Shown here: positions 1 through 61,656 of the stretch, in pieces
Numbering within the stretch: position 1 is the stretch's first letter
Layout of the letters: every line of letters starts with the position of its first letter
Source: Candidatus Omnitrophota bacterium
Lineage (GTDB): Bacteria; Omnitrophota; Gorgyraeia; Gygaellales; JAQTUX01
Length of the DNA: 64,000 nucleotides
Reading direction: 5' to 3'
NCBI GenBank assembly: GCA_028707125.1
Contig: JAQTUX010000002.1
Coordinates: forward strand, 433,872 to 497,871
The notes under the pieces: model-generated
What the model saw: only the letters and a program-made list of their open reading frames with translations
The model's database searches: none
What the model was told of the DNA's origin: nothing
Made by a program: the position numbers and the translations under genes

Positions 1-3000
1 TCTGGAAATTGTCAATTATATTGGTAACACTGCTTATATTGCTTTCCAGCTGGCTTAGCGCGTCTACGACGGATTGCATCTCCAGCACGTCTGCCTGATA
101 TCCGGTCTCTGTTATACCCGGGTCGGCTATGCCCAACCGCTGCCTGCGTTCCAGTTCGGTTTGAAGCGCTTCCCTCTTCTCTGCCAGGTCCTCAACCAGC
201 CGGTTCCAGGCCTGTAAAAGGCCGCTGCCGCCTGCCGCCAGCACCACCGGGTCTTCTTCCCAGGAGGCGATCTCAAGGCCAAGCGCGATACGCAACTGCA
301 TCTGAAGCCAGCCAATAGCGCCGATCGCCAGCGGATTGGTTTCAGTGTCGCCTTCCAGCCAGACCCTGTAGTTCTCGCGCACATACTGGAAGAAGATTTT
401 GTAGCGCATATCATCCCAAACGCGCTTGGCATCCTTTATGACCCTGATGCCGCCCATAACCCCCTGTATCCTTGCCGCGTGATACATAGGCACATACTTG
501 CTGAAGAACTCCTTCTGCATCCTGATATATTTGCCGTATTCGTTCTTGATCCTGGTGTATTCTGCCGCCTTTTTGTTCAACTCCTCAAACGAGGCAATGG
601 CCTTCTTGCGGGAAGCGGGGTCGTTGCCGTTCTTGAACTTATCCTCAATGATCTCCTTGACGATCGGTACCGACGGCGGGTTATCCAGATAGGTCTTGTT
701 GCCGTCCTTATCCATCAGCACCCAATTATGTGTCTCGGTCCCTTCGTCATAGGCGTATTCAACGATGGCCGGCAGCACAGCGGGCTTGCCGTCAATGAGC
801 CCGTCGGCGATAAAGCGCATGTCCCTGGTGATCACCGTGCCGGGCTTGAGCGTTATCTTCAGGCCGTTATCAAACTCAACTACCATCGCCTCCCTGATTA
901 TCTCCATATGGAGCTCCATCAACTCTTTGGCGTCGTTGATCAGGTAGATGCCGGGCAGTTCAGGGAATTGTTTGAAGGTAATGACTTTTGCCAGCGGCAC
1001 CTGCATTGTCTGGCCGCCCTTCAGGCGGGCGCCTTTGACCATAAGCGCATCGTAGTCCTCAGGTTTGACGGCCTTACCGCCCAGGCCGTTCCGCATCGCC
1101 CAGTCAATGCGCGCCATATAAAGGGAAGGTATGACCACACTCCCGCTGTAAGGATTGATGTCGGCGTCATATGCCTCGGCAAAGTTTCCGTCCGACTCGA
1201 TCTTATAGAAGCCGTTGTCATAGCGCAGGACGCTGCCTTTGGCCGCTACGCGCATGTCCCCGACGCCGCTATATGCGGTGATCTCCCCCGGAAGGACCTT
1301 GAGCTCGTTGTCCTTGTCATCCTTGTAGGTTAAGGTATCGTTGCCGTTGATCTCGCCCCCGAAATTAAGCATCGCGGTAAGGAAATCATTGAGCCGCTCA
1401 TAATCTATTATGCCGGGTATTATATAGTCACCCAAAGGCAGCCAGGCCTCGCCTGATGTGGTCTCTGTCTCAAAGCCGTACTTTTCTATGGATTCCTTTG
1501 TATTGGGGAAGAATATCCTTAAAGGAGCGGTGGTGGTAAAGCGCTTTTCATTATATTCGCCGTTTTCATTCTTAAGCGGAACATTTAAGTCCTCCCTGAC
1601 TAATCTGCCGATGACGCTCTCTTGCCCTGTTCTCTGATCTATCTCCCGCACCAGATGATAGCGGTAAGTCGGATCGTAATTCAACCTCGCGTCTATCAAT
1701 GACTGTCTCTGCCACTCTGAAGAGAATGGATAGGCGGCATAAGGGCCGGCCTTTTCCCGCGGCATGCCCTCAAATATATGCTTGATCCACTGGTTGGGAT
1801 CAGGCCCTTCGAAAATGAATAACTTATCGCTCTCCAGGTCATCTACTTCCTTAAACCACTTTATGTCTATGCGCGGGTTATACAGGACAGCGGACGTCCC
1901 TGCTTCAAAGATCTTAAATCCGGACGGCTTGACATTTAACTTATGGGGGACCATCACGCCGCCGTAGTGGCGCAGCTTTCCCATTACCGGCATATTCATT
2001 ATATGGGTAATGCTTGAGATGAGCGATATGCCGGAAAGCGGGTTGAACATACCTTTGGCGAATAAGCCGTATAAGATATTTATCACGTTTATGAAATCAT
2101 AGCCCTGGCCGCCCAGGCCGAATCCCAGGAATACGCTCTTTGCCACCCTCAACTGCGCCAGGGCGCCTGCTGCCTGCGTATCCAGGGTCACCATAAAGCT
2201 CACCGGGTCAAAGGTGATCTCCTCGCCGGCCAGGTATCTCTTGTAATTCTCAAGGTATCTCTTGATATTGTCGCGCGTCTCACTGATGCGCTGCTCAAGA
2301 TATGCCAGGGCGCGCGCCTTGCTTTCGTCAATGGCGAATTTGATCCTGAGTTCTCTGGGGTCTTCGGGCGCCTGCCTGCCTTCGTCATTGGCAATGGTCA
2401 GAGGGTTGTCTCCGGACTTCTCAAGGAGGTTCATCACTGTGGAGGCGAGGAAGACCGACGAATCCTCAGGCGTATAAACATCGCCCCAGGCAGGCACGCG
2501 CCTGTCTGTCTGCGTGGCAAAAGGAAGCGTGTCTTCGAAGGCCATCGCGTCCAGGCTCTTGCGGTATTTATCAACAAGGTCGTCCCTGCCTGCCTTCTTA
2601 TAGAACATCATCGCCTCGATCGTACGTTCGGGGCTGCCCAGGTTAAGCGCGTCTTTCTCTTTAAGCTCCTGCTCCAATTCCTTGATCTCATCCGTAAGCG
2701 CGCCTATCTTCCAGGCGATCTCATCCAGCTCTTCTTTTGTCTTCTTCTTGTCCTTCTGCTGCTCCTTGAGACCCTTGATCTGCCGTTCCTTGAAATCCAT
2801 CAGCTCTTTGCGCGACTTGTTATATGAATCAAACAGCCGCTTTCTCTCCTGACGTCCGGCAAACGCGATCAGCGTGACATCTGCCTCTTTGACCCCCTCT
2901 GCCCTGGTCTTGTATTTCGTGCCCACGCTTGCCTCTGTCTCCAATGCCTGCGCGAGCTCCTCATAGGTCAAGCCGATACCTTTCAATTCTTCTCTGGTCA

Positions 3001-6000
3001 TTGCCAGCGCCGGTATTGCCTGGGCATCGGAATAGAATGTCTTGTCTATCTCGTTACGCGTAATGCCGCCGAAGAACCTCTTCTCCTTTTTATCCGCGAA
3101 CAATCCCATTGCCGCGATCACCTGCCGGGCCTTTATCCCAAAGCTGACCCCTGTCTTATCCTCGTATGCCTCGTAGGCCTTTAACAAGGCGATGGCGCGG
3201 CCGTTCTCCTCAGTCGAGACACCGCCTATCAGGCGCGGCTCTATGAAATTGCCCGCCTTATCCATACGCAGGTCATAGCCCTGCTGCAAGAGCACCGGTT
3301 CCCGCGACATATCTACGCCGCCCAATTCCTCTGCCGTAAACATATCCTTTAGATCGCTCAGGCGCAGCGGCCGGCTCATAACGGCGTTGGTGATCTCCTG
3401 CGCCAAGCCAAGGAACGCGTTATCGCCGGTAGCAATGGTATAGGCGAGCATGCTCAGCGCCAGCGCCGAATCCACGCCTGTCCTGGTCCTGTATATCTCT
3501 ATCCTGCCTGTCTGGGCGTTGAAAGCCTCCGGTATACCTCTGAAATACTGTTTCCTGTCTGTCTTTACGTAATTATTCTCGTAGAACTTAAGATAGAAGG
3601 AAAGCACTGCCTTTGCCTCATCCTTCCTGTCTTTATTGAGCAGCCACATCACCAGCACTGCCTGGTCAAAGGTAAACGCCCTGTTTGCCTCAAGCGCAAA
3701 ACCCGGATGGGACACCCACAGCCCTGTCTTTTCCAGCTTGATGATACCGGCCTCGATCGCCTTTATGCTCTCCTCATATACCTCTCCGGTCTCTTTCCAT
3801 ATGGTTGCGGCACCCGCGTGTGACTGGGCGTTCTTGAATGAGACATCCAGCCACTCCTTGAGCGACTTCCAGTCATCCATTACCTCGCGATAGCGTGCCC
3901 TGAAATTCTTCTCAACCATACCGAAATCCATCGCTGTCAGGTCAGCCGCATTCTCAACAATAGCGTTTATGTCCGTATATACCCTGCCCACAAACGCCTC
4001 TTTCCGGGCAGCGTTAAGATCTTCTGACAGCTGCGCGGCGACAAACAGGTCAAGTATCTCTTTATATTTGGCGATAATGCCGTCCCTTCTCTGCGTGATC
4101 AAGCTTAATTCCTGCCTCTCCTGGGCGCCTATACCCTTATCGTTCTTCTTGTCATCAAGCGCCTTCTTGGCCTTTTCAAGCACGGATGGGGCAGGGAGCA
4201 GGGCCTTTAATTCTTTTACCTTGTTTTCAACGGCCTTCTCTATACCGTCTTTGCCCAGGCGCGCCTGAATGTCCTTGTAATTGTCTGACGGCTGCCACAA
4301 ATCATCCGGCCCTATAGCCCTGGCTGCCAGATCGCCTCTTGCCTGCAGTTCTTTCTTGGCATCTTCTACGTTCGCCTTCATCTCATCAATCTTCGATGCT
4401 TCAACCTGCAGGGGCTGGACCTTTTGTTTAGAAACCGCCTCTTTGGATGCCTTAACTAAATAATCCTCTGGATCAACTTCTCTGCCGTTGATGCCGCCTT
4501 TTCTGATCTCAAAATGTAAATGGGTCTGAGGTACATTATAGGCATTGCCTGTTCTGCCCACTGCCCCTAAGACGTCTGTCTGTGTAACCTGCTGTCCTTT
4601 CTTCACCTTAATTGAATCTAAATGAGCGTAAAGCGTATAGTTTTTGTCCTTGTGTTTAATTATCACTGTCTTGCCATAGTCCGTCTTTGAGCCGGCAAAG
4701 ACGACCTCTCCTTCTAACGCAGGATGCACGTCCGTGCCTTTTTCGGCCTCTATATCAATGCCTTGATGTTTATGGTTGTTCCTGCTGCTTACTCTATAAT
4801 CGCCGAATTCACTTACAATGTCTCCTGCAACCGGCCATGTGTAAATATTATTTTCTACTCTCCTGTCTCTCGCTATGGCGCTGAATACGATCAAATGAAG
4901 CGGTATCCTCCATGTCCCACCCGAAATCTGTTTTGTCCGCGGCGCCAGGGCATCATTCAACTCCTCTATTCTGGCGTTAATGCCGGTTGATATGCGCTTT
5001 AATACCGCCTGGTGCGTCTGCCTGCTCCACTCACCGGTCTGCTCAAGGCCCAGGCCCTTCTGCAGCGCCTTGACCTGAGAAGACAAGAGCTCGGTGTAAA
5101 TGGCGTTTGTCTCCTCATTCAGATATTCGCCGTATAACCTGATGCCGTCCAAGCCGTATTCCTTTTCTGAAGAAGAAACCCTCTTGTTCTCTAACCATTT
5201 ACCCACGATCTCCCGTATGCCGATCACCCTCTGGTCTTTCTTATTGCCGTCCACCTTGAATATATCTGAGTCATCGCCCTGCCATTTCAACTCTTCCAGC
5301 CCGGCCTTCTCTTGTTCCAGCACAAGCAGGTCGTTAAGTTTCTTCAGCTTATCCTCGGCCGCTTTTATGCCGGCATCGTTTTTCTGGGAATCGTATTCTA
5401 ATTTAAGTGAATTGATCTCAAGGCGGGCTTGGATCACCCTCTCTCTTAAGTCCTTAAATTCGATGCCGGCCCTATGCAGCAAGGCCTGCTCGGCAAACAG
5501 CCCCTTCCTCTCATCCATCAATGTATTGGCCCTGCCTTCATAAACGGCGGTCAACTCCTCCCGCAGGTTCTTCCAGTCATCTTCGTCAAGGTTCTCGGTC
5601 AGCTTATCGCGGCCGTGTATCCTGTAGAAGATATTAAGCGCCAGCACGGGGGATTTATCTACGGGATAACCCGCTTCCTTAAGTAAGCTCATCAATATAC
5701 TATCGCTGTCGGATGAGGAAGCGCCGTATTTACTGAAATCAATGGCCAGATCATCAAGCGTAATGGCCTCAAGTTCTGCCTTCTTAAGTCCTGCCTTAAT
5801 GCCCTTTATCTCCTCATCGATCGCCTTTATCAGGCCTGCCCTGTCCTGCGCTGACCTGGCGTCAACTTTTTGTCTATCCTCAATTTCCTCTTCAAGGCCG
5901 GCGATCTCTTTCCTGATTTCAAGCAGCCGCAGATTCTCTCCGGCGGCCCTGTTCTCTTTTACCTCTAACGCCTCTTTCTCTTTATTTAAGGCCTCTATCT

Positions 6001-9000
6001 TCTCTTTGTTGATGCCCTGTTTCAACTGCGCCATCTCTTCATCCAGCGCCTCAACCTGCTCGTCGTCTTTGTTCGCTGCCTTAATAAGGGCGTCCCTGTT
6101 TATCTCAAGCAGCCTGATGTCCTCTTCCGCGGTCCTGTATTCATTCGCCTCCAATGCTGCCTTTTCCGCGGCAACTTCCCTCTCTGCCTTTATCCTGCCT
6201 GACTCTGCCTCAATAGCACTCCACTTCTGGACTAACCTTCTGTACGCGCTGTCTTCGCTGCCCTGCGGATCATTCCAATATTTCCACAGGCCGTTGGCAA
6301 CCTCGCGCGCCGCTGAGCGCTCCTTGTAAGTAGGAAGCTCTGATATGGCCTCTTCCTGGCGGCCGCGCGCCTGCTTCTCTAACTCTGAATACCAATATTC
6401 GCCCTGCTGCCTCTCCTGCTCCGCCTTTTGCCTCTCGCTCAGGTCCTCTTTCCCGCCCAGGGTATAATGGATGAACTGCGGTATAGACGCTCCGGCTATG
6501 GTCTGCGGTAGAAGAACGTGCCCCAGGCCGATGGCGCCCGGAGGAACAATGAGTTCTCCGTCCTCGCTGAACTGTCCCGCGCCTTCCAGGCCGTTTGCCA
6601 ACGCCATTGCCTGCTTACCGCCGTAGTCCTTGAACAGAGGATGGTTGCCCATTGCCTGGCCGGCGTCAATGATCAATCCGATCTCAGCCGAGATCAACCA
6701 CATATGCCACAGGCCGATGTAGAAATCCTTGCCCGCCCGCACCAGAGCCATATAATATCCGTTACGATCCTTTGTCTCTATGGCGGACAGGTCGAATAAC
6801 TTCCTGATGCCCTTGTCCCCATAGAATGCCGCGGTGAGGATTATTAACGCGGGCGCGGCAACAACGGTCAAGGCCGCGGCTATGTCAAATCCGGCAAACA
6901 ACACACCCTTCCTGACGGCGCCGGCCGGTATTGACCCGCCTCTTTCTTCATATATCTTAAGGTAACTGTTACGCAGCTGCGGTATTTTCTTCAGGTTAAG
7001 GGAGATGACTATAATCGCCAGCCGGAACATCTCTTCCAGCGTATACTGCAAATGCAGCCCTGTCAGCAAGCGCTTCATCAGCATATTGCCGCCGACTATT
7101 GAAGGCGGATTGGCGATATTCCAGCCGAACAATGCCGCCAGGGGCCCGGCAACATAATCGCCGGCCAGGGCAAGCACAGCCCTGCCGATAATAAACCTGA
7201 CAATTCCGGAAGCAATAGGAAATGCCGCTTTAGCGGTTGTCCTGATGTTCTTCAGGGCATACACGGCCCGGCCTGCCAGGTCTGTGTTGGACACAGCGCC
7301 TACAGCCAGGTATTTGTCCTCCACGAATTCGGCAAACTGAATATTGGTCCAGATATAGTCAAAGAAGAAGTTCCAGAGCACCGATGCCAGATACGGCGAG
7401 ATAACGCCGAATATGGCGCCATAGAGGATGCCCGGAGCGCCTAAATAAGTCCCGCCTACGACAGCGCCGATCGCCGCCAGGGCCTTTATGTAAGCGCGGC
7501 GGTTAAGCACATCGTACGCGAAACTTAAGAAATCCTTCTTAAGCGGCCTATTATATTCTTTTGATTTTAAGAATCTCTGCCAGTCATCTTTGGTGGCGTT
7601 CATCAAGGCAATGATCAGGCAGCCGGAGAATAACAGTTTGGCGGGCTTGCCGCGGGAAAGGCGGCGGATGTCCTGCGCCAACTTGCCGATACCTAACAAT
7701 AACACTATGGAGGGGAACACGTAAGGAAATACACCGGCGATATAGGCGAGAACGGGAATGTTTGAATGAAGTATTGCTGCCGGAAGCGCTGCTTTTGTGG
7801 AGCCGGCGAACAACTGCAGGCCGTAAGAAAGGACGGAGATGCTTGTGATCAAACCAAATGACTCTTTGAGGAATTTGCGCGCCTGAGAAAGGTATCCCCT
7901 GTCAGGGCCCCTGATCCCGCCGTGCTCCACGCGCTGCTGCGTGACGCGCGCTGCCTGCGACAAGAACATTACAGAAGTATAAACGAAAGGAATGGATAAC
8001 AGAAATGCCGCGATACCCACGATTGTCAGAGGATTGGCAAAGGCGTAAAATGCCATTGCCGCCACCGGAATCAGGGCTACAACGCTCATAGCCATTGAAC
8101 CGCCGGCAGTAGCGCTGCCGGGAATGCGCTCAGAAGCGGAGCTGGAGGCCTGCTCCCGGCGCTCAGCATTTACAATACCCAGATCTTTGAATACATCGGC
8201 GGGGATAGTCGGATAGATTGCGCTGCCGCACAATATCCTGAGGAATCTTTCCTTATCCTCTGACGAGATATTCCCGGGAGCGCCTTTATAAAAATCAGGG
8301 CCCTTGATTATGGCGGAATGCAATATATCCTGAGCAGCATAGCACACAACAACATAGAAGCTCTTTACGGCTTTGTTCTGAGGAGACGCCGTATTACGTA
8401 TCATATCCCAGGACGCTTTGACGGCGCACTTCAACAAGGCCTTGCCCGGCTTACTGATCTTCTGCGTATCCTCTGCTTTAAGGTTTGCTTTGACCCAACC
8501 GTTCATAATAAACATATCTAAAAATTCGGAAAATGCCTGCACGGCAAGCGTTAAGTCATTGGGCATCACATAAATGCTGCCGCCTCGCAGCAGAAGCCAG
8601 ACGGCTGAGGCCTTCAACTCCTCGGGAAGACGGCCCTCCCTTATCTCTTGAGGAATCTGTTTCTTCTCTTTATATGCCTCCATATATTGATTGCGGAGAC
8701 GCGCGTACTCTGTGCCTATTGTGATCTCTCTATCGCCGCTCTTGACCCGCTTTGTTGACCTTATAAGACGCTCCTCAACCCAGCTGTAAAATTTGTCCTT
8801 ATCCCTGTTTTTATATAACAGATCCTTCTTTTCCCTTAGCCACGCATTCTCCCAGAGATACTGCTTTACCAGGTTATCTATGTAAGCCGGGCTTAAACCG
8901 GATGACAGTATCGCGGTATTTACCAATTCCCTGACCGTCTTTGAAATCCGAGGGCTCTTCTGCACCGCAATTTCAACGTCTAACATACCATTCAAAAATT

Positions 9001-38346: not shown

Positions 38347-39243
38347 CTAAAATCCGAACGTCCCTCCCCGCATAAATTGCAACAATATCGGCCCGGCCAC
38401 CATGATCAAAACCATCGGCAGAATGCAAAACAACAAGGGAAACAGCAATTTGATCGGCGCCTTCAGGGCCATCTCTTCCCCGTTCTGAAAACGCCGTATG
38501 CGCATCTCTTCCGACTGTATCTTCAGCGCCTCTCCCATAGGAGAACCCATCCTGTCCGCCTGAAGCAGCGTCCTTGTGAAAGACGACATCTCTACCATGT
38601 TGACCCTGTAAGAAAGGTTCTTCAGCGCCTCCCTCCTTGTGCGGCCCACCTGCGTCTCTCTATACATCATCGCCAGCTCTTCAGTTAGAGGGCATTTCTT
38701 AAAATCCCTGATGACCCTGCCCACCGCGAGCATAAAATCAAGGCCGGCGCCGACGCACAGGTAGAGCAGGTCAATGACAAAAGGCAGGTCTCGTGATATG
38801 GACCTTTGCCTCTTTTGCACCCGGCTCCTTAACCAGAGGTCAGGAAGAATAAACCCGATCGCCAAGCCCGCCGCTATATACAGCGGCCGGTTAAAAAATA
38901 TTATGGAAACAACAATGCCTGCTAACGCGGTTGAGACAAACTTGAAGCTAAGGAACTCCAAAGGATTTAAAGGATATCCCGCCATAAGCAGTTTCCTCTC
39001 CAACCCCTTTAATTTAAGGCGCTTGCTTAACGGCCTGACAACAGGCAGGAACGCGTCAAGAAATTTGCGCAAAGGGTTCCTCTCCCTTTTTTCGGATTCA
39101 AGAGCGGCGATATCCAGGCTTTCCTGTTCATCCTCGGAAAGATACGCCTCTTCTCTTTTGGTAAAAGGAGACGACAGCTCAAAGGCGAGAAGGACTATCG
39201 CCGTAAAAATAAGGCAGTACGCGGATATCAATAATATGCCCAT
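38347..39243 (-). CDS. tadC: Tad pilus inner-membrane platform protein TadC (T2SS-F/GspF-like domain)
   Basis: 298-aa track ORF with 3+ TM segments and a GspF-like core. It lies directly downstream of tadB, and its stop sits 8 nt before the giant-ORF start. Confidence 0.8.
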   Translation of the reverse strand: MGILLISAYCLIFTAIVLLAFELSSPFTKREEAYLSEDEQESLDIAALESEKRERNPLRKFLDAFLPVVRPLSKRLKLKGLERKLLMAGYPLNPLEFLSFKFVSTALAGIVVSIIFFNRPLYIAAGLAIGFILPDLWLRSRVQKRQRSISRDLPFVIDLLYLCVGAGLDFMLAVGRVIRDFKKCPLTEELAMMYRETQVGRTRREALKNLSYRVNMVEMSSFTRTLLQADRMGSPMGEALKIQSEEMRIRRFQNGEEMALKAPIKLLFPLLFCILPMVLIMVAGPILLQFMRGGTFGF

Positions 39244-39244
39244 C

Positions 39245-40093
39245 TCACACCTCTACCTTGCTGAACTTCATAATTAAAAATATACCTATTATATAAAGCG
39301 CGGCGCCCCCGCCTAAAAGCATCTGCCCCATCTGGTCGTTAAGCATTACCTCAAAAAAGGCGTTGTTCATGGTATAGACAAAGAACCCGAAGGCGATCGG
39401 CAGAATACCCATGATCGTGCCTTGGAGCTTCCCCTGGATGCAGAGCGCGTTGACCTTGCCTATAAGCTTGTTCCTTTCCCTTATGGTAGTCACCAACTCA
39501 GAAAACGTGTCGGTAAGGTCTCCGCCGGATTCCCTGGCCACAAGTATCGCCGTATTGATCAGATCAAGCTCATCGATCGGCATCCTCTTCTTAAGATTGT
39601 TCAAGGACTGCTCAAGCGGCATACCCACGCGGTTCTCCCTCACCACCAGCCCGAACTCCTGAGATACGGGCGCGGGCATCTCTTCAACTAATGCCTCAAA
39701 TGCCTGAAGCAAGCTCAGGCCCGCCTTAAGGGAGCCCGAAAGGATCATCAAGGCGTCAACCAGCTGCTGGGAGAACATTTGCCTGCGTATCCTCTCCATC
39801 TGCTTTATAACCAAAGTAGGCACTATGAGCCCGATGAAACCCGCAGCAGCGGCAGCGAGTATATTACGGAAAACCAAATACGCCCCGAACGCCAGGACAA
39901 CGGGTATTAATACATCAAGGACCATGATCTTGTTAATGGGCAGGTTCAAAAACATCCTGTCAAGCTTAGGCGCGTATTGTTCCATGCGCCTCTGGCGCTG
40001 CCTTTCATACAGCTCTACTGCCAGCGGTATGCACTCATTAATAAGCAGCCCCACCGAACCAAAACTCAGGATAAATATGGCGAATTTGATCAT
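39245..40093 (-). CDS. tadB: Tad pilus inner-membrane platform protein TadB (T2SS-F-like)
   Basis: 282-aa track ORF with a GspF-like domain and TM segments at both ends. There is a 1-nt gap to tadC. Confidence 0.8.
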   Translation of the reverse strand: MIKFAIFILSFGSVGLLINECIPLAVELYERQRQRRMEQYAPKLDRMFLNLPINKIMVLDVLIPVVLAFGAYLVFRNILAAAAAGFIGLIVPTLVIKQMERIRRQMFSQQLVDALMILSGSLKAGLSLLQAFEALVEEMPAPVSQEFGLVVRENRVGMPLEQSLNNLKKRMPIDELDLINTAILVARESGGDLTDTFSELVTTIRERNKLIGKVNALCIQGKLQGTIMGILPIAFGFFVYTMNNAFFEVMLNDQMGQMLLGGGAALYIIGIFLIMKFSKVEV

Positions 40094-47896: not shown

Positions 47897-48061
47897 TCAG
47901 GTATTCAGCGGCTCGGCGTTGATCTGATTCTCCAATGCCTTCAGATTCGCCTGCACAGCCCGCTGCACATAAACGCGCATAGCCACAAACGCGCTGACCA
48001 CAATAATTATTAAGACAGCATACTCAAGTGAGGCCTGACCCCTATGCCATCTATTTACCAT
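47897..48061 (-). CDS. Short Flp-type prepilin (MVNRWHRG/QASLEYAVL…); start at internal Met
   Basis: Track ORF 47897..48175 overlaps the upstream gene. The internal Met gives a 54-aa prepilin. Confidence 0.5.
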   Translation of the reverse strand: MVNRWHRGQASLEYAVLIIIVVSAFVAMRVYVQRAVQANLKALENQINAEPLNT

Positions 48062-48063
48062 CG

Positions 48064-48282
48064 CTACCTCCGGATTGACTCTGCTATGCCGCTGAAAAAA
48101 CCTCTCAATCCAAACGCGCTTTCGCTTTTCAAGTAAGCCGCGAACATCACAAAGGTCACCACCGCGAAGGCACAAAAGATCAAAAAATATTCTACTGTTG
48201 CTTGGCCTTTTTTAATTCTTAAGCACTTTGTAAAAGTTTTGTTTAAGTGCCTAATAAAAAAACCGAAAGTTTCTTTCATCAT
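48064..48282 (-). CDS. Flp-type prepilin-like ORF (…RIKKG/QATVEYFLIF…) with uncertain start
   Basis: Has the G/XXXXEY motif, but its first 10 codons coincide with a hairpin + T-run terminator-like structure. Confidence 0.45.
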   Translation of the reverse strand: MMKETFGFFIRHLNKTFTKCLRIKKGQATVEYFLIFCAFAVVTFVMFAAYLKSESAFGLRGFFSGIAESIRR

Positions 48283-48300
48283 TTCCTTTCGGCTTTCGGT
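48250..48300 (-). terminator. Hairpin (CCGAAAG…CTTTCGG / GAAAG-AAA-CTTTC) followed by T7 run on minus strand
   Basis: The minus strand reads '…ccgaaagccgaaaggaaatgatgaaagaaactttcggtttttttatt'. It lies ~170 nt downstream of the 532-aa gene stop and inside the first codons of pilin ORF 48064..48282. Confidence 0.4.
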
Positions 48301-48466
48301 AGCCCGGCCTACCTTGATAACAATGTTGTCAAGGTACCGTGGCTTTGCGCATCCCGGCTTACGCCGGGAATTGCCCTTTTCGCTGCCGTTCTACTTGCAC
48401 TTAAAATATACCATATATACTACTATATGTCAAGCGCAAAACTGCCTGAAATTGAAAGCGGTTACA

Positions 48467-50065
48467 TTATTGTGAGAACCAGAAACGGCGGCCGGTTTTA
48501 TCAACGCTATTTAGTTCGTTGGCGCGCTTAGAAAGATAGGCAATATCGTTGGTATGGCCTTGCGGCTGGAATTTGATGAGGTTGTATTTATCCTGTTGGA
48601 TCGATCTGCCGCGTAGTTTGAAAACCCGCTCCGTTATATCGTTTAAGGCAATCTTATCATAACCTATTGGCAATAAATGTGTTGCGCAATACTTTATCAG
48701 GCCCCAGCGCCAGGCCTTAAGCACGCTCTCAAAGGATAGCGCCTCAGGTATGTATCCCCTCTCCCCCTGCTTGCGCGTTTCCTCCGTCGAGAAAACATTC
48801 TTCAGGCCGAATGAGAAAAACTCGATCCTCTTGTTGAAATCATCCAGAGCATCCTTGAAATCAGGCCATTTGTTTAAATACGCCCGGGCAACGTCCTCTT
48901 TGCTTAACGACTCTTTATCCATATCTGTCAGCAACACAAGATAATACCTGTCCCGCGAGGCCTTCTTAATGAAAATGGCCCTTAACGTAACTAATTGATT
49001 TAGCTTATGTTGCGTGAATTGAGCCGTCCCTTCCGACAATACGATCTCCTCAAGATCGGGTCCTGGCCGGAAAAAAGACCCTTCTTTTTTATCCTCTAAG
49101 GCGATTTCGGAGGCGTATTGCCCTTCAGGCAGCCCTATTATAAAGTCGGTTTTAAGGCGCGGTATCTCGCAGGCGCTGCTTATCTCCTCTCTGCCAGAGG
49201 TGAAGAACGATATGTTTTTAACGTAGAGATGCGAGGGGAACTTACAGCAGCCGATGAAATCAAGCAGGCCTTGCGGCATCTTGCTCGCTAAGGGGGCGAT
49301 AAAGATAACAAACGGCTCTGTCTTGTTTATGAAGGTATTTTTTATATAAATCTCTGTATTGTAATATGTTGCGTAAAAATCTGACGGGATATTACCATAA
49401 GGCCAGATCGTCCTCGCGCTTGCGTCAATATATATTGAAGAGTCGTCTGATAACACAAATTTCAAATACTGCACCTCTCGGATACGCGGCATAAGCTCTT
49501 TGTATAACCTGAAATTGATTGCTGTATTATATTGCAATTGTTCAAGATAAGATACCAACCCCCCATAATCTATGCCGGCTCCTGTAAGGCGCTCAAACGT
49601 CTCTTTTATATAACTATTTGATTCGTAATCGTTTACGTCACCAAATAGGGAGATGTACAATAAAGTTTCCACGAGCGCCCTGATGTTTCCAGGGGCATTT
49701 TCGGCAGTGGTTTCTTGCAATAAATTCGTTATATAATCAACCCCTCCCAAAGTGTTTTCAATTGCCTTGAGCAAATATAGGCCCATATTCAATTCGCCTT
49801 CTTGAGGGAGTTTTGGGGGCTCCGGTTTTATCTCTGGCCTTATCTCAGGAAGGGGCGGCACAGGCGCCCCCTTCCTGCGCCTGCCAACAGGGCTGCTTAG
49901 ATTTAATTGTTTGATTATATTATTTACTGTGGACTTTGATATTGTCTTATTGAATCTCTGAGAAAGCGTAGCGGATATTTTCCTCGCGCTCAGGCCGGGG
50001 TTTTGCTTCTTAAGATCAGAAATGCTCTGTTTGAGCTCTTCAGTTACTTTGTAGATAACGCCCAT
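48467..50065 (-). CDS. Hypothetical 532-aa protein with N-terminal HTH-like segment
   Basis: Track ORF. The N-terminal '…LSARKISATLSQRFNKTISKSTVNNIIKQ…' resembles a helix-turn-helix, followed by a Pro/Lys-rich linker and a large unassigned domain. Confidence 0.55.
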   Translation of the reverse strand: MGVIYKVTEELKQSISDLKKQNPGLSARKISATLSQRFNKTISKSTVNNIIKQLNLSSPVGRRRKGAPVPPLPEIRPEIKPEPPKLPQEGELNMGLYLLKAIENTLGGVDYITNLLQETTAENAPGNIRALVETLLYISLFGDVNDYESNSYIKETFERLTGAGIDYGGLVSYLEQLQYNTAINFRLYKELMPRIREVQYLKFVLSDDSSIYIDASARTIWPYGNIPSDFYATYYNTEIYIKNTFINKTEPFVIFIAPLASKMPQGLLDFIGCCKFPSHLYVKNISFFTSGREEISSACEIPRLKTDFIIGLPEGQYASEIALEDKKEGSFFRPGPDLEEIVLSEGTAQFTQHKLNQLVTLRAIFIKKASRDRYYLVLLTDMDKESLSKEDVARAYLNKWPDFKDALDDFNKRIEFFSFGLKNVFSTEETRKQGERGYIPEALSFESVLKAWRWGLIKYCATHLLPIGYDKIALNDITERVFKLRGRSIQQDKYNLIKFQPQGHTNDIAYLSKRANELNSVDKTGRRFWFSQ

Positions 50066-50077
50066 TTAGTCAGCTCA

Positions 50078-50180
50078 AAAATGTCCAATCTAATCTTTAA
50101 GTCAGATTGGACATTTATGCCTCCACATCAAGTATAATACAAGAGTTAACTAAAGTCAAGTTAATTCAGATTGGACAATT
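50078..50180 (-). promoter_or_regulatory. Sigma70-like promoter (-35 TTGACT / 17 nt / -10 TATACT on minus strand) with palindromic operator ATGTCCAATCT-N12-AGATTGGACAT and a third half-site
   Basis: Plus-strand IR arms sit at 50081-50091 and 50104-50114, and the third half-site 'cagattggacaa' at 50167-50178. The -35 is the revcomp of 50154-50159 and the -10 the revcomp of 50131-50136. The element sits between the DUF192 stop and the start of the HTH-protein gene. Confidence 0.5.
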
Positions 50181-50190
50181 ATAGGAGAGT

Positions 50191-50532
50191 TTACTGAAAG
50201 GTAATGACATCCCCTGTTTCAGTGCGGGTCTGGCGAGCAGTTCCGGAAGGAAGTTCTATGCAGTAATAAGCCCCAAGATAAATGCCAGAAAGGCGCCAGG
50301 GCTGGAGATCATGCAAAACCTTGATAACCCTGCCCTGCCTTGTGGTAAAGACAGCGTCAATGCTGAATTTCATAAAAAAGGTGTGAATGGAGGTGCAGGC
50401 GGCTATGACCAGGCCCTCTCCCTGATGAAGGGACGTCTTTCCCAAAAGCCCCTTCATGCGCGAAACCAGGGTATCGGCTAAGGCGGCGTTTTCTGCCAGA
50501 ACCGTGCCCTTACCCTGGTTGATTATTTTCAT
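50191..50532 (-). CDS. DUF192-family protein (commonly encoded in tad loci)
   Basis: 113-aa track ORF whose sequence pattern (…GLLGK…GEGLVI…CTSIHTFFMKFSIDAVF…) is typical of DUF192/COG1430. Confidence 0.7.
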   Translation of the reverse strand: MKIINQGKGTVLAENAALADTLVSRMKGLLGKTSLHQGEGLVIAACTSIHTFFMKFSIDAVFTTRQGRVIKVLHDLQPWRLSGIYLGAYYCIELPSGTARQTRTETGDVITFQ

Positions 50533-52691
50533 TACTGCTTGAAGAGGTTATCAGGGACTTCAACACCGTGGGACTTTATTTCCTCTATAAATGAAGGGAT
50601 ATATCCTGTGGGGATGTAGGTGCCGGTGATCCTTCCGTCCTTATCAAGCCCTGTCTGCTTGAATGTAAAAATGTCCGCCATATCAATATGCACGTCGTCC
50701 TTCATGCCGGTGATCTCGGTGATCTGCATGATCTTCCGGGAGCCGTCAGAAAGCCGCGCCGTATGCACGATTATATCAACTGCCGAGGCGATCATTTCGC
50801 GTATGGCGCGGATAGGCAGTTCTGCCCCGGACATCAGTATCATTGAATCAAGCCGGGAAAGGACATCGTGAGTGGAATTGGCGTGTATGGTGGTAAGCGA
50901 ACCGTCGTGGCCTGTGTTCATTGCCTGAAGCATATCCAGGGATTCCGGGCCGCGGCATTCGCCTATTATTACCCTATCAGGCCTCATTCTCAGGGTATTC
51001 CTGAAAAGCTCCCGTATGCTGATGCCGCCCTTGCCTTCTATATTGGGCGGCCTTGACTCAAGCCGCCCCCAATGCTCCTGGCGAAGCTTCAACTCTGCCG
51101 CGTCTTCAATGGTTATGATCCTCTCATTCTCCGGTATAAACTCGGAGAGCACATTCAAAACCGTGGTCTTGCCTGAGCCGGTTCCGCCGGACACTATCAG
51201 ATTCTTACGCACGATCACGCATATCTTTAAGAAATCCTTCATCTGTTCGCTTAAGGTGCCGAACCTCAGCAGATCATTGATATTGAACCTCTCTACGCCG
51301 AATTTCCTTATGGTAAGCATTGGCCCGGTAAGGGAAAGCGGCGGGATGATCGCGTTCACGCGGGAGCCGTCAGGAAGGCGCGCGTCCACCATGGGAGTGG
51401 ACTCGTCAATATGCCTGCCGAGAGGGGCGATTATCCTCTCAATGATCTGCCGGACCTGATCGTCCGAAAGAAACCTCTTGCTGGTCAATTCTATCCTGCC
51501 GCGCCTTTCTATATAGATCTGGTCCTTATTATTGACCATTATGTCGGTTATGTCTGGATCGCTGATAAGGTCTTCCAGCGGCCCTAACCCCAGCGCTTCA
51601 TCCGTGATCTCTTTTATAAGCCGCTTTCTAACCTCAAAACTGGAGAGGAATGCTCCGGTCTCGGCAGCCAGGGCGTTTGACACGGCCTTCTCGGTCTTCT
51701 CCTTTATCTGGCTCACCTTATTCGGATCGATCGTATTCAGATCAAGCCGTTTCAGATCCAATTCTTCTATGATACGCTGGTGCACCCTTTTCTTAAGGAT
51801 GATGACTTCGTCCCTCTCGGACTCTACTCTTTCCGCCAGGCGCAGCGGCTCAGCCAACCCCAGGCGCCGCCAGAAATCTCCTTCCTTGGCCAAAACAGAT
51901 TCTCTTGCCCTCTCCAGCGCCACCTCCTGGTGTTCAATGTACAGGTCCGCCTTCTCAACAAGGACCTTGCCCAGGCCCTTGATCACATTGCTTACCTTTG
52001 AGCGCGGGGCGTCAATTACGATGGGGACCCTTCTGTTCACGGAATAACCCACTGCCTTGCCTTCCGAGGGGATCTTGGCCAGTATCTCACAGGGAAGCGC
52101 TGCCCTTACCTCCTGCCAGGTAACACCCCCCACGCTCTCTGAACGGTTGAGGAGAAGCTTTACCATTTTCAGGGGGAAGTGCAGCGATTGCAGAACATCC
52201 AATGACCACTTGGTCTGATACACGGAAAGTATGTCGGGGGTAACCACCAGGAGGACAAGGTTTGACTGATTAAAGGCATAAAACAGCATCTCAGAAAAAC
52301 CCTTACCCACATCCATAATAACGTAGTCATATTCCTTATTGAGCATCGCGAAGACGTCGCTTATGTATTTTTCCTCAAGGTGCACGCTCTGGCGGGGGCG
52401 GGAGACCGCGGCAAGGAAATCAATTTTCAGATCGGGGAGTTTCAGCATAAACTCCCTTATAGACGCCACCGGCGGCTGTTTCTTAAGGCCGACTATCGCG
52501 TCAAGAAAGTTATACGACGGGCTTATGTTAAGCATGCGCGCCATATCTCCCGGCGCCTGAGTATCCAGGTCAAGCAGGGCGACCTTCTTGCCCTGGTCTT
52601 TTGCTATGCTTACGGCAAGATTGGCGGCGATAAGGGTTTTCCCTACCCCACCCTTAGTGGAGAAAATCGCGATTGTCTTAGCGGAAGGCAT
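50532..52691 (-). CDS. tadA: Fused TadZ/CpaE-like ParA-type ATPase domain + TadA/CpaF secretion ATPase (719 aa)
   Basis: The N-terminus 'IAIFSTKGGVGKTLIAANLAV' is a deviant Walker A of the MinD/ParA/CpaE type. The C-terminus 'IVSGGTGSGKTTVLN…' is a CpaF/VirB11-type Walker A, followed by the His-box region. Confidence 0.8.
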   Translation of the reverse strand: MPSAKTIAIFSTKGGVGKTLIAANLAVSIAKDQGKKVALLDLDTQAPGDMARMLNISPSYNFLDAIVGLKKQPPVASIREFMLKLPDLKIDFLAAVSRPRQSVHLEEKYISDVFAMLNKEYDYVIMDVGKGFSEMLFYAFNQSNLVLLVVTPDILSVYQTKWSLDVLQSLHFPLKMVKLLLNRSESVGGVTWQEVRAALPCEILAKIPSEGKAVGYSVNRRVPIVIDAPRSKVSNVIKGLGKVLVEKADLYIEHQEVALERARESVLAKEGDFWRRLGLAEPLRLAERVESERDEVIILKKRVHQRIIEELDLKRLDLNTIDPNKVSQIKEKTEKAVSNALAAETGAFLSSFEVRKRLIKEITDEALGLGPLEDLISDPDITDIMVNNKDQIYIERRGRIELTSKRFLSDDQVRQIIERIIAPLGRHIDESTPMVDARLPDGSRVNAIIPPLSLTGPMLTIRKFGVERFNINDLLRFGTLSEQMKDFLKICVIVRKNLIVSGGTGSGKTTVLNVLSEFIPENERIITIEDAAELKLRQEHWGRLESRPPNIEGKGGISIRELFRNTLRMRPDRVIIGECRGPESLDMLQAMNTGHDGSLTTIHANSTHDVLSRLDSMILMSGAELPIRAIREMIASAVDIIVHTARLSDGSRKIMQITEITGMKDDVHIDMADIFTFKQTGLDKDGRITGTYIPTGYIPSFIEEIKSHGVEVPDNLFKQ

Positions 52692-52700
52692 AGTTATTCT

Positions 52701-54311
52701 TCAGCGTCTTTTATAAACAATGGGGACGTCAACCCAGAGTTCTCCATCCTGGATCTGGGGCGGAAACGGAGGATAGGGGGACTGCGCTTTGGCAACGGAG
52801 ATCGAGGCGTCATCAATGATCTTGTAGCCGGATGACTCGGTTAATTTTATATCCCCGAGCCGGCCGTTACGCAGGATGCGAAGGCTTAATTTCACTACCC
52901 CTTCCCATCCCGCGTCGCGGGCAACCTTAGGATAATACACTGACCTGGATATCTTGGTCTGCACTGCCTTGACGTATTTGTACACATTTTCGTTGCCCAG
53001 AAAATATGAAGGAGAGACGATATCCGCCTCAAATGAGGCATCGCTCCTCTGCCGGGACATCCCCCCCTTGCGCAGGGAAAGATTGCCGATGTCCTCTTCC
53101 TTTATAACGTGAGGGGTAAGAGTGATCACCAGCTCCGTCTGGTTATTGGTAAAACTTTTTGACCTGAACAGAGCGCCTAAAACCGGCACATCTCCCAGGG
53201 CAGGCCACTTAGTCAAGGTATCGCTGTCTTTATTCTTAATTAAACCCGCCAGAAATACGGTCTGTCCGTCCTTAAGATATAGTTCGCTCTCCGCCTTGCG
53301 CGTGTCAAAGCCGGGTATGTTGATACCGCCTGCCGTTACTGAATTAGCGGTATTTATCTCGCTTACCTCCATTGTCAGCTGGGTAATGATCGCCTCGCTT
53401 TTTGTGTAAGTAGGCTTGATCTTCAAAGAGATACCTATATCCCTGTATTCCACATTAGTGGTAAAATTCTCTCCCAGCGTGCTGGTAGTGACAATGGGCA
53501 CCTCTCCGCCGACAAGGAACTCCGCCTCTTTACCGCTTAAACATACGAGTTTTGGCCGGGAAAGCACCCTGCCCTTGCCGCGCTTGATATACATGTTCAA
53601 TGCCGCGGTCACGTCTGTGCGGGTAAGGTAGCCGATCCTGAATGCCTCCGCCACCCTGTGGCTGAGCGGCTCTGTGGCTATGCCTTCAAAGGGGTTTTCC
53701 GTTACGGTTGTAAGCGGCTGGAGCGTCCAGCCGACGCCCAGATTATCGGCGTCGTCTATAGTCAACTCCAGGATCTGGACGTCTATCTCAATAGAGGTCT
53801 TTGACTCCTCGGTAATAACCGTGTTTACTACATATTGTTTCAAATCGCCCAATACGTAGTCAAGCTTCTCTTTTTCCGCTTCATTCACTACCTGTCCGCT
53901 CAGAAATACCTTCCTCTCATCCTCGTTTATCTTTGTCTGAACTTCGGAAAAACCCGTATCCGCGAGGACCCGCTTGATCCGCGCGTTAACCTGGTCCAGA
54001 TCCACGCTGAATACCTTCAGGCGGAAGGAGTGCTCGCCGAATTTATCCCAGTAAACAAAGGTGGTGGTGCCGTCCGCCTTAGCGTTCACTACTATATCTG
54101 TTTCAGTAACCTCGGCGACATCCGCCACAGCGGGATTACCGATCACCACCCGTGTCGGCTCTTGCGCTTCAAAATGCCTGACCTCATTCACCATCAGCAT
54201 TATCTCTTCAACGCCTTCTATCTCCCCTATATCAAACAATGCCGACGCGGGAGCGGGATGCGACAGTGCCAGTAAACCAACCAGGATAGGAACTAACAGC
54301 GCTTTTCTCAT
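52701..54311 (-). CDS. cpaC: CpaC/RcpA-type secretin with C-terminal TonB_C-like domain
   Basis: Signal peptide. Secretin core '…LVCLSGKEAEFLVGGEVPIVTTS…ISLKIKP…VFLAGLI…'. C-terminal 'YPKVARDAGWEGVVKLSLRILRNGRLGDIKLTESSGYKIIDDASISVAKAQ…PFP' resembles the TonB C-terminal domain. Confidence 0.8.
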   Translation of the reverse strand: MRKALLVPILVGLLALSHPAPASALFDIGEIEGVEEIMLMVNEVRHFEAQEPTRVVIGNPAVADVAEVTETDIVVNAKADGTTTFVYWDKFGEHSFRLKVFSVDLDQVNARIKRVLADTGFSEVQTKINEDERKVFLSGQVVNEAEKEKLDYVLGDLKQYVVNTVITEESKTSIEIDVQILELTIDDADNLGVGWTLQPLTTVTENPFEGIATEPLSHRVAEAFRIGYLTRTDVTAALNMYIKRGKGRVLSRPKLVCLSGKEAEFLVGGEVPIVTTSTLGENFTTNVEYRDIGISLKIKPTYTKSEAIITQLTMEVSEINTANSVTAGGINIPGFDTRKAESELYLKDGQTVFLAGLIKNKDSDTLTKWPALGDVPVLGALFRSKSFTNNQTELVITLTPHVIKEEDIGNLSLRKGGMSRQRSDASFEADIVSPSYFLGNENVYKYVKAVQTKISRSVYYPKVARDAGWEGVVKLSLRILRNGRLGDIKLTESSGYKIIDDASISVAKAQSPYPPFPPQIQDGELWVDVPIVYKRR

Positions 54312-61557: not shown

Positions 61558-61561
61558 ATAA

Positions 61562-61636
61562 TAGCCCCAACCGGATTTGAACCGGTGTTTAAAGGCTGAG
61601 AACCTTCCGTCCTGGACCAGGCTAGACGATGGGGCC
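61562..61636 (-). tRNA. tRNA-Glu (anticodon CUC)
   Basis: Minus-strand sequence GGCCCCATCGTCTAGCCTGGTCCAGGACGGAAGGTTCTCAGCCTTTAAACACCGGTTCAAATCCGGTTGGGGCTA folds as a cloverleaf. The D-arm is almost identical to E. coli tRNA-Glu. The anticodon loop is TTCTCAG and the T-loop GGTTCAAATCC. No CCA is encoded. Confidence 0.8.
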
Positions 61637-61656
61637 AAGAGGCCAAAGTTTTTATT

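Follow-up and report, generated by a model that had tools for sequence, protein, structure and literature searches.

A helix-turn-helix protein gene at a fixed position in the Tad-like pilus/secretion locus of Omnitrophota, with conserved TGTCCA sites at its own promoter

Introduction

What does a gene for a DNA-binding protein do between the assembly genes and the pilin genes of a pilus locus, and what are the repeats around its promoter? The question is raised by a 64,000-nucleotide (nt) stretch of DNA from a Candidatus Omnitrophota bacterium (contig JAQTUX010000002.1, positions 433,872 to 497,871; assembly GCA_028707125.1), here called the window. On the minus strand of the window, between a DUF192 gene and an array of pilin genes, lies an open reading frame (ORF) of 532 amino acids (aa) with the N-terminus MGVIYK (48467..50065, -). 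We use the name FAM for this protein and for the family of its homologues. The window's FAM is NCBI entry MDD4910629.1, annotated as a 'helix-turn-helix domain-containing protein' of a Candidatus Omnitrophota metagenome-assembled genome (MAG). The original prediction for this DNA, made from the letters alone, placed the ORF correctly. It took the gene for an insertion with a helix-turn-helix (HTH)-like N-terminus, its own promoter and a perfect palindromic operator, and it offered autoregulation, pilin regulation and a domesticated transposase-like protein as possible interpretations.

The Omnitrophota, which are uncultured and ultra-small, are thought to live as predators or parasites (PMC10066038; 10.1101/2023.11.21.568195). 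A conserved secretion system that precedes their giant genes was described by West-Roberts et al. (10.1101/2023.11.21.568195) and Seymour et al. (PMC10066038), and the published descriptions of the locus list an ATPase, a secretin, RcpC, a rotamase and pilins. The locus in the window is that secretion system. Neither of the two papers mentions FAM, a transposase, an HTH protein, an operator or a cyclic di-GMP (c-di-GMP) riboswitch, and we found no description of FAM in the literature searched on Omnitrophota Tad systems or giant genes.

We describe here the position of FAM, the sites at its promoter and the domains of the protein. We think it likely that FAM is a fixed, probably catalytically dead and possibly transposase-derived autorepressor, with TGTCCA sites on its own promoter.

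Results

FAM occupies the same place in related loci

We found that FAM is not an insertion but belongs, as a fixed component, to the Tad-like pilus/secretion locus ahead of the Omnitrophota giant genes. An exhaustive HMMER search (E<=1e-3) gave 618 FAM clusters at 50% identity, all with the HTH at the N-terminus, a conserved region of approximately 440 aa at the C-terminus and, between them, a linker that varies in length. The MGVIYK start was kept in all FAM homologues. Scanning contigs from one genome per species with a 10-sequence alignment gave 59 loci, nearly all in Omnitrophota MAGs; loci labelled 'uncultured Planctomycetales' were third-party bins. Contigs with homologues at 58%, 26-28% and 23% identity share the gene order rotamase-RcpC-secretin-TadZ/A-DUF192-[FAM]-pilins, and phmmer mapping of the window's neighbours found the same synteny in ~50 of 64 related loci, essentially all of those with enough flanking sequence. 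There was one FAM locus per MAG, except for one MAG with two copies, both beside pilin arrays.

The original prediction of an inserted gene is therefore not borne out. FAM has the same position in ~50 loci down to ~23% identity, no copy of the repeat was found at the 3' end of FAM in the window, and tblastn of FAM against plasmids and phages gave no match. We also considered the repeats as the terminus of a mobile element and rejected this idea: the window held no further half-sites, and hexamers within 400 nt past the stop codon were present in 8 of 57 loci, which is background with no enrichment.

Three related loci (we number these loci with the prefix L) have the family gene, together with its promoter, turned around in place (L019, 6001-7710; L034, 5796-7829; L039, 6001-6621). 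Both the DUF192/TadZA arm and the pilin arm are there encoded on the other strand from the gene, and the TGTCCA sites are on the promoter side only.

Three half-sites bracket the FAM promoter

The stop codon of DUF192 (50191) is separated from FAM by a gap of 125 nt that holds a promoter and three copies of a repeated site. The sigma70-like promoter (50131..50159, -) consists of TTGACT (50159-50154), a spacer of 17 nt and TATACT (50136-50131). It has 10/12 matches to consensus, in agreement with the original description, and is the second-best promoter-like site in the interval 48000-50700. Site A, TGTCCAATCTGA (50166..50177, -), is a direct copy located 6 nt upstream of the -35. Site B, ATGTCCAATCT (50104..50114, -), is also direct and begins 16 nt after the -10, in the 5' untranslated region (UTR). 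Site C (50081..50091, +) has the half-site inverted, reads AGATTGGACAT on the minus strand and ends 15 nt ahead of the FAM ATG. The promoter thus has half-sites on both sides, site A closely preceding the -35 and the inverted pair B/C following the -10, ahead of the start codon.

Sites B and C form a perfect 11-bp inverted repeat, ATGTCCAATCT-N12-AGATTGGACAT, with the 12-nt spacer at 50103-50092. This repeat and the third half-site upstream of the -35 had both been predicted. The repeat had been placed immediately after the promoter; it is indeed downstream of the -10, and 'immediately' is loose wording for the 16 nt that separate the two. A repeat finder extended the arms to 16 nt at 94% complementarity, and sites A and B lie within a 22-nt direct repeat (91% identity, 64 nt from start to start).

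We found that these sites are confined to the FAM promoter within the window. The octamer TGTCCAAT has no copies in the window besides sites A, B and C, which argues against a repeated mobile-element terminus, the finding that the original prediction had named as evidence against itself. The three copies of the longer 12-mer with <=1 mismatch all fall inside 96 nt. With <=2 mismatches, 5 copies were found in the window and 4.3 were expected, i.e., chance level.

If the B/C repeat (50081-50114, -) is transcribed, it folds into a hairpin in the 5' UTR (-23 kcal/mol, z -4.9); none of 200 shuffled sequences folded as well. The hairpin could add an effect at the RNA level in the window's lineage.

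The TGTCCA element is conserved with the FAM gene

To evaluate conservation we used a comparative set of 64 related loci, nearly all from Omnitrophota MAGs. The 12-mer ATGTCCAATCTG was found upstream of homologues with only ~25% protein identity. Allowing <=1 mismatch, there were 69 copies in 773,531 nt of related loci, compared to ~3.4 expected, and 55 of the 69 were within 300 nt upstream of a FAM homologue. Within +/-6 kb in the 64 loci, the only recurrent location of the site was the upstream region of the FAM gene itself.

We then counted the core hexamer, TGTCCA or TGGACA, in the region from -130 to -1 of each of the 64 loci and in 12,019 control windows. At least one hexamer was present in 54/64 of the upstream regions and in 5.9% of the control windows. 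At least two were present in 35/64 of the upstream regions and in 0.23% of the control windows.

The presence of the site was correlated with the presence of a promoter. An equivalent TTGAC..TAtAnT promoter (score >=10/12) was found in 41/64 of the homologous upstream regions, and 40 of these 41 promoter-bearing loci carry the site (site and promoter, site alone, promoter alone, neither: 40/14/1/9; Fisher p=2.3e-4). Nine of the 10 loci without a site also lack a >=10/12 promoter, and in several of them the gene abuts DUF192. Because the half-site is conserved with the gene across the phylum, is located at the gene's own promoter and is missing mainly where that promoter is missing, autoregulation by the adjacent HTH protein, as originally proposed, is the best reading of the repeats.

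The arrangement of the half-sites varies among the loci. In the commonest layout, one copy is at -20 from the ATG, right after the -10, and a second, direct copy is 54-66 nt further upstream, just before the -35. Site B is homologous to the first of these copies, which is near-universal and lies between the -10 and the ATG. Counterparts of site A, upstream of the -35, recur in many homologous loci. Seven distant members (L013, L040, L057, L058, L063, L064 and L065) have a perfect promoter-proximal palindrome, TGTCCA-N3-TGGACA. In most other homologues, the promoter-proximal site is TGTCCAATCTGGAG, a degenerate palindrome that overlaps the ribosome-binding site. The long-spacer inverted repeat that includes site C is limited to the window's close relatives, in which the hexamers are 12 (L009), 20 (the window) and 41 nt (L001) apart. 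The perfect palindrome that the original prediction took as the operator is therefore not the essential geometry. Across the family, the element is a TGTCCA half-site or TGTCCA-N3-TGGACA.

Copies of the site were also seen at a few other places in related loci. Two distant homologues have two near-perfect copies of the 12-mer inside the FAM coding sequence (L029, at 5053 and 5122; L032, at 1747 and 1816). In each case the copies are in frame at a distance of 69 nt, and at homologous positions both are translated as N-V-Q-S. These copies are unlikely by chance; internal operator sites or an internal promoter are possibilities. L027 has three direct ATGTCCAA sites (2654, 2744 and 2799) ahead of a gene for a Fic-domain protein (ORF 2896-3927, motif HPFRDGNGRVSR), which lies directly upstream of the family ORF (4027-7320) and may be a second target. 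Two loci related to each other, L020 (7165) and L021 (8107), have an inverted copy, CAGATTGGACAA, within the signal-peptide coding region of the first pilin, where it encodes Q-I-G-Q-S at the prepilin cleavage motif. We rejected binding at the pilin signal-peptide region as a general feature, as the copy is present in these two loci only and is absent from the window.

The N-terminal domain of FAM is a predicted HTH on a disordered linker

The predicted DNA-binding domain (aa 1-65; 49871..50065, -) consists of a three-helix HTH (aa 9-53) and a basic arm, LSxPVGRR, that is near-invariant in the family. Two Pfam models matched FAM below threshold, HTH_Tnp_Tc3_2 (E 2.4e-5) and HTH_32 (E 1.9e-4), and 27-34 of 82 family members matched HTH_32, HTH_33 or HTH_Tnp_Tc3_2. 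The HTH also resembles IS481, IS630 and IS3 models and PHROG transposases; all of the HTH matches were below curated thresholds. AlphaFold2 (AF2) modelled full-length FAM with a predicted local distance difference test score (pLDDT) of 90 from an 82-sequence alignment, and the HTH as a confident three-helix bundle (pLDDT ~96). The sub-threshold matches and the model together uphold the HTH-like N-terminus of the original prediction, which would have been undermined by a protein without a DNA-binding fold.

The HTH is the best-conserved part of the protein, with a mean pairwise identity of 53% compared to 30% for the C-terminal domain. This is as expected for a domain with a nearly invariant DNA target. 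A disordered linker rich in Pro, Glu and Lys follows (approximately aa 66-91; 49793..49870, -), as judged from alignments and from pLDDT values below 50 at aa 64-77. The length of the linker between the HTH and the C-terminal domain ranges from ~25 aa in the window to ~650 aa in L027, where it is rich in Glu, Lys, Ala and Arg.

The C-terminal domain weakly resembles Tn5 transposase

The remainder of FAM (aa 92-532; 48470..49792, -) was modelled as a helical bundle, an alpha/beta core that contains D214, a beta-rich insertion and a helical tail. In the AF2 model, the bundle spans aa 96-195, the alpha/beta region with its long beta insertion spans aa 200-380, and helices continue to the C-terminus. 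The C-terminal domain modelled separately had a pLDDT of 92.9 and a predicted template modelling score (pTM) of 0.91.

Sequence searches did not connect this domain to a known family. The C-terminal 441 aa alone matched nothing in Pfam, even at E<=10. Searches of Pfam, NCBIfam, PHROGs and the PDB (phmmer and hmmsearch) gave HTH matches and noise only, with no PDB sequence relative of the C-terminal domain. Neither FAM, its 82 relatives nor the isolated domain matched DDE_Tnp_1 (PF01609) or the NCBIfam IS4 model, and a profile search of the protein database with an alignment of the domain added no transposase-annotated relatives.

Structure comparison pointed to Tn5. In a Foldseek search of the PDB, six Tn5 transposase/inhibitor entries ranked 1-6 for both the full-length and the domain-only models, over ~436 aligned columns. 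The matches were weak (E 2.6e-3 to 6e-2, probability up to 0.85, template modelling (TM) score 0.21-0.25, root-mean-square deviation ~15 A). Foldseek of FAM against BFVD gave nothing meaningful. Using a Tn5 sequence that had been checked against the PDB, we found that hhalign of the family profile was non-significant, with E values of 0.13 against the single Tn5 sequence and 0.29 against a 38-sequence profile of the Tn5 family. Both best local alignments pair ILTN..YLxRWP of the family with LLTSEP..IYTHRWR of Tn5, the stretch that leads into the YREK motif. The family consensus YLxRWPNLEExFxDFSRK resembles YTHRWRIEEFHKAWK of Tn5, with one extra residue. Tn5/IS4-like ancestry of the C-terminal domain is probable but unproven.

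We examined the candidate catalytic positions in 212 family sequences. At position 214, 201 of 204 sequences have Asp, as does the window protein. At position 261, the family has Asp (102 sequences) or Glu (30) and the window protein has Ser. Glu is found at position 404 in 124 sequences and at position 405 in 140, where the window protein has Lys and Asp, respectively. Only D214 is invariant family-wide; the other acidic positions are 62-72% conserved. Among the 190 members counted at all four positions, 82 (43%) keep all four acidic residues and 17 keep D214 alone, the window protein among them. The window protein has D214, S261, K399, K404, D405 and R413, and an intact D-D-E triad and Y-R-E-K signature are not present. 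FAM residues were mapped to Tn5 residues by motif and not by superposition. If this mapping is correct, the window's FAM would have relaxed or lost catalytic residues. It is very likely not an active transposase.

These results partly sustain the predicted domesticated transposase-like protein. The transposase-type HTH and the single-copy, fixed position fit this idea, and the only structural neighbours of the C-terminal domain are the Tn5 entries, by weak matches; we regard it as plausible.

Neighbouring genes and a c-di-GMP riboswitch

The genes upstream of FAM are on the same strand and encode a peptidyl-prolyl isomerase (rotamase), RcpC, a secretin with a TonB_C tail, a TadZ-TadA fusion (CbiA and T2SSE) and DUF192. 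Pfam matches of the neighbours were T2SSE+CbiA, Secretin, RcpC, DUF192 and Class_IIIsignal. FAM itself matched none of the Pfam families of canonical Tad/Flp components (TadZ, TadA, RcpA/C, TadB/C, TadD-G, Flp, TadV) and had HTH matches only. The fusion of a TadZ-like ParA/CbiA domain to the TadA (T2SSE) ATPase (50532-52691, -; 719 aa) and the secretin with a C-terminal TonB_C domain (52701-54311, -; 536 aa) are both kept in related loci L001, L002 and L008. Further along, ARAGORN and Rfam agree on a tRNA-Glu (anticodon CTC) at 61561-61637 (-).

A c-di-GMP-I riboswitch aptamer (48295..48385, -; RF01051, 53.5 bits compared to a gathering score of 35) is located between FAM and the first pilin gene. 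A promoter scan found TTGACA-17-TATATT with a TG extension (48405..48433, -), 34 nt past the FAM stop codon. With 11/12 matches, this promoter outscores that of FAM (10/12), and it drives the riboswitch together with the pilin array. Of 20 other loci tested, 8 (L001, L006, L013, L018, L020, L021, L033 and L046) have a riboswitch directly 3' of the FAM homologue. Because a riboswitch with its own promoter precedes the first pilin and recurs in these loci, the pilin array of the Tad-like system appears to be gated by c-di-GMP. Links of giant genes to PilZ and GGDEF have been reported, and such gating agrees with them.

Past the riboswitch are small genes with class III signal peptides, then more unnamed ORFs, and then two ORFs (38347-40093) with homologues in L001 and L006 that match Pfam T2SSF. 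Downstream of these and on the same strand is an Omnitrophota giant gene, an ORF of at least 12,780 codons (2-38341, -) that continues beyond the start of the window. Our scan found no terminator-like sites on the coding strand on either side of FAM.

Discussion

Alternative explanations for the gene and its repeats

Several explanations other than autorepression have to be weighed. One is that a mobile insertion sequence landed between DUF192 and the pilin array and that the repeats are its ends. The transposase-type HTH, the weak Tn5-like fold and the position of the repeats beside the gene's promoter, as at the left ends of insertion sequences, could be taken this way. However, the gene is at the same position in ~50 loci across the phylum with one copy per MAG, no repeat lies past the stop codon (any hexamer in 8/57 loci, the background level), the octamer is nowhere else in the window, no plasmid or phage homologues were found, and the acidic positions are degenerate. 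This explanation is highly improbable; synteny and the missing second end effectively refute it. We also consider it quite unlikely that FAM, or its catalytically intact relatives, is a site-specific recombinase or invertase that switches pilus-locus expression by cutting or recombining DNA at the TGTCCA repeats, by analogy with Piv. Such a function would fit the invariance of D214, the four acidic positions kept in 43% of members, the occurrence of the repeats in direct and inverted orientation, the gene and promoter inverted in place in three loci and the adjoining pilin array. Yet the window protein has Ser and Lys at positions 261 and 404 and Asp in place of the usual Glu at 405, and no sites flank the FAM gene or the pilin genes. 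Most loci have only direct repeats ~54-66 bp apart around the promoter, or a 15-bp palindrome, a geometry like that of operators and not of recombination sites, and even the three inverted loci have sites on the promoter side only.

The repeats might instead not be operators of FAM, if another regulator bound them or if B/C acted as a 5' UTR hairpin that affects mRNA stability or translation. The strength of the hairpin in the window and the overlap of the site with the Shine-Dalgarno region in most homologues (TGTCCAATCTGGAG) are consistent with this notion. But site A and its homologues are upstream of the -35 and hence not transcribed from the FAM promoter, and most homologues have a single half-site or a mini-palindrome (6 bp with a 3-nt gap) that is unable to form a stable hairpin. 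In addition, the motif is essentially limited to the regions upstream of the FAM family, and its conservation runs parallel to that of the HTH. We judge this explanation unlikely. The proposal that FAM regulates the pilin array or Tad genes directly, which the original prediction had put forward for the pilins, is unlikely as well. The strict linkage of FAM to the locus would fit, and, with no terminator-like site between the FAM stop codon and the pilin/riboswitch promoter, the FAM promoter could feed read-through into the pilins. In contrast, there is no half-site at the riboswitch/pilin promoter, at the start of the operon or elsewhere in the 64 kb, and the only consistent location of the site in 64 loci (+/-6 kb) is the FAM upstream region. 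The pilins have a promoter of their own, and their leader already contains the c-di-GMP-I riboswitch.

Several observations weigh against FAM as a transposase-derived autorepressor. It is co-conservation alone that would assign the TGTCCA sites to FAM. Activators typically bind where site A lies, upstream of the -35, and the sign of the regulation is therefore uncertain. The half-site is missing from 10/64 loci, including L002, which has a strong promoter, and the window's B/C repeat, once transcribed, would in addition fold into a stable hairpin in the 5' UTR. The likeness to Tn5 is weak, with no Foldseek E value <=1e-3, non-significant hhalign scores and no match to PF01609 or IS4. The invariant Asp is apparently on the second strand of the sheet, and its mapping to D97 of Tn5 is unproven. 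Lastly, with all four acidic residues kept in 43% of members, catalysis may persist elsewhere in the family.

A model for autoregulation

If FAM is an autorepressor, its HTH and basic arm would recognise the half-site (A)TGTCCA(AT), and its C-terminal domains would keep two or more subunits joined in a multimer. The flexible linkers would let the HTHs reach half-sites of varied spacing and orientation, either 3-41 nt apart or as direct copies ~64 bp apart (approximately six helical turns), and such binding might loop out the promoter. With sites B and C occupied, initiation or escape of RNA polymerase would be blocked, giving negative autoregulation. The bound complex may also gate read-through from the assembly operon into FAM, the riboswitch and the pilin array, since no terminator-like site was found on either side of FAM. 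The sites could plausibly be the fossil of an ancestral transposon end beside a transposase promoter.

More tentatively, and with somewhat less than even confidence, we suggest that a single capture of an ancient DDE transposase (Tn5/IS4-like), early in the evolution of Omnitrophota, made it a fixed part of the Tad-like secretion locus ahead of the giant genes, and that the end of the former transposon is now the operator. FAM would then represent a new class of transposase-derived regulator in bacteria, whose C-terminal domain might sense or connect to the pilus, c-di-GMP or the giant-protein system, and the members that keep their acidic residues may still cut DNA.

An autoregulated HTH protein, perhaps an exapted transposase, is a known kind of thing. 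The FAM family, its place in the giant-gene loci of Omnitrophota, its conserved operator and the architecture of a tethered HTH appear to be undescribed in the literature searched. A Tad-like locus ahead of giant genes is the main genomic clue to host attack by Omnitrophota (PMC10066038; 10.1101/2023.11.21.568195). A predicted DNA-binding protein that is found phylum-wide, together with a nearly invariant 12-bp target, is a concrete handle on the regulation of this secretion machinery. If the transposase ancestry is true, FAM would be among the few bacterial cases in which a DDE transposase has been exapted to a fixed role in the cell, and would offer a natural example of how an HTH carried on a linker of 25-650 aa can tolerate very different half-site spacings.

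Comparison with known systems

The sole structural neighbours of the FAM C-terminal domain in the PDB, by weak matches, are the transposase of Tn5 (IS50) and its inhibitor Inh, of the IS4 family (PDB 1MUH, 3ECP, 4DM0, 1B7E). FAM and Tn5 share a co-linear order of features, in which a beta-strand is followed by an invariant Asp, then by a beta-rich insertion and an 'LLT(N/S)' strand, with Y-x2-R/K-W ~18-20 aa further on. The two differ in that the Y..R..E spacing of FAM has an extra residue (WP) and positions 261/404 of the window protein are Ser/Lys. FAM also has an N-terminal HTH of the Tc3/IS630 type and a disordered linker, both of which are missing in Tn5. Unlike a Tn5/IS4 element, FAM lacks inverted repeats at both ends, is not mobile and has a fixed syntenic position. 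Some transposases bind a terminal repeat that overlaps their own promoter and so repress themselves.

The N-terminal domain is closest to HTHs of the Tc3/IS630/IS481 type (HTH_Tnp_Tc3_2, HTH_32 and HTH_33), which gave the best sub-threshold matches for aa 6-65. In FAM, the HTH is followed by the basic PVGRR arm, reminiscent of the minor-groove arms of this class. However, FAM scores are under the curated cut-offs, and the domain behind the HTH belongs to none of the IS630, IS481 and IS3 types.

With autorepressed dimeric HTH regulators, FAM shares half-sites or a 15-bp TGTCCA-N3-TGGACA right after the -10 of its own gene, and co-variation of the HTH domain and the site with the presence of the promoter. 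It differs from them in that its HTH is of the transposase/homeodomain type and is joined to a 440-aa domain by a disordered linker of 25-650 aa. The half-site spacing is also very plastic (3, 12, 20 or 41 nt, or direct repeats ~64 bp apart), and no other target was found nearby.

The pilin invertase Piv of Moraxella is a DEDD recombinase related to IS110/IS492, and its inverted sites flank an invertible pilin segment. Like Piv, FAM is encoded beside pilin genes and is possibly related to transposases. In contrast to Piv/IS110, FAM has no DEDD Pfam domains, its sites are all on its own promoter and flank neither the pilins nor the gene, and the window protein lacks acidic residues at positions 261 and 404.

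The TldR proteins are nuclease-dead repressors of flagellin genes that are derived from TnpB (PMC10705468). TldR is RNA-guided and has a RuvC fold, whereas FAM carries an HTH in the protein itself, lacks a guide RNA and would, at most, have ancestry of the DDE/RNase-H type. With this difference, TldR (PMC10705468) is a precedent for a transposon nuclease exapted into a catalytically dead bacterial transcription factor that is tied to a surface-appendage gene.

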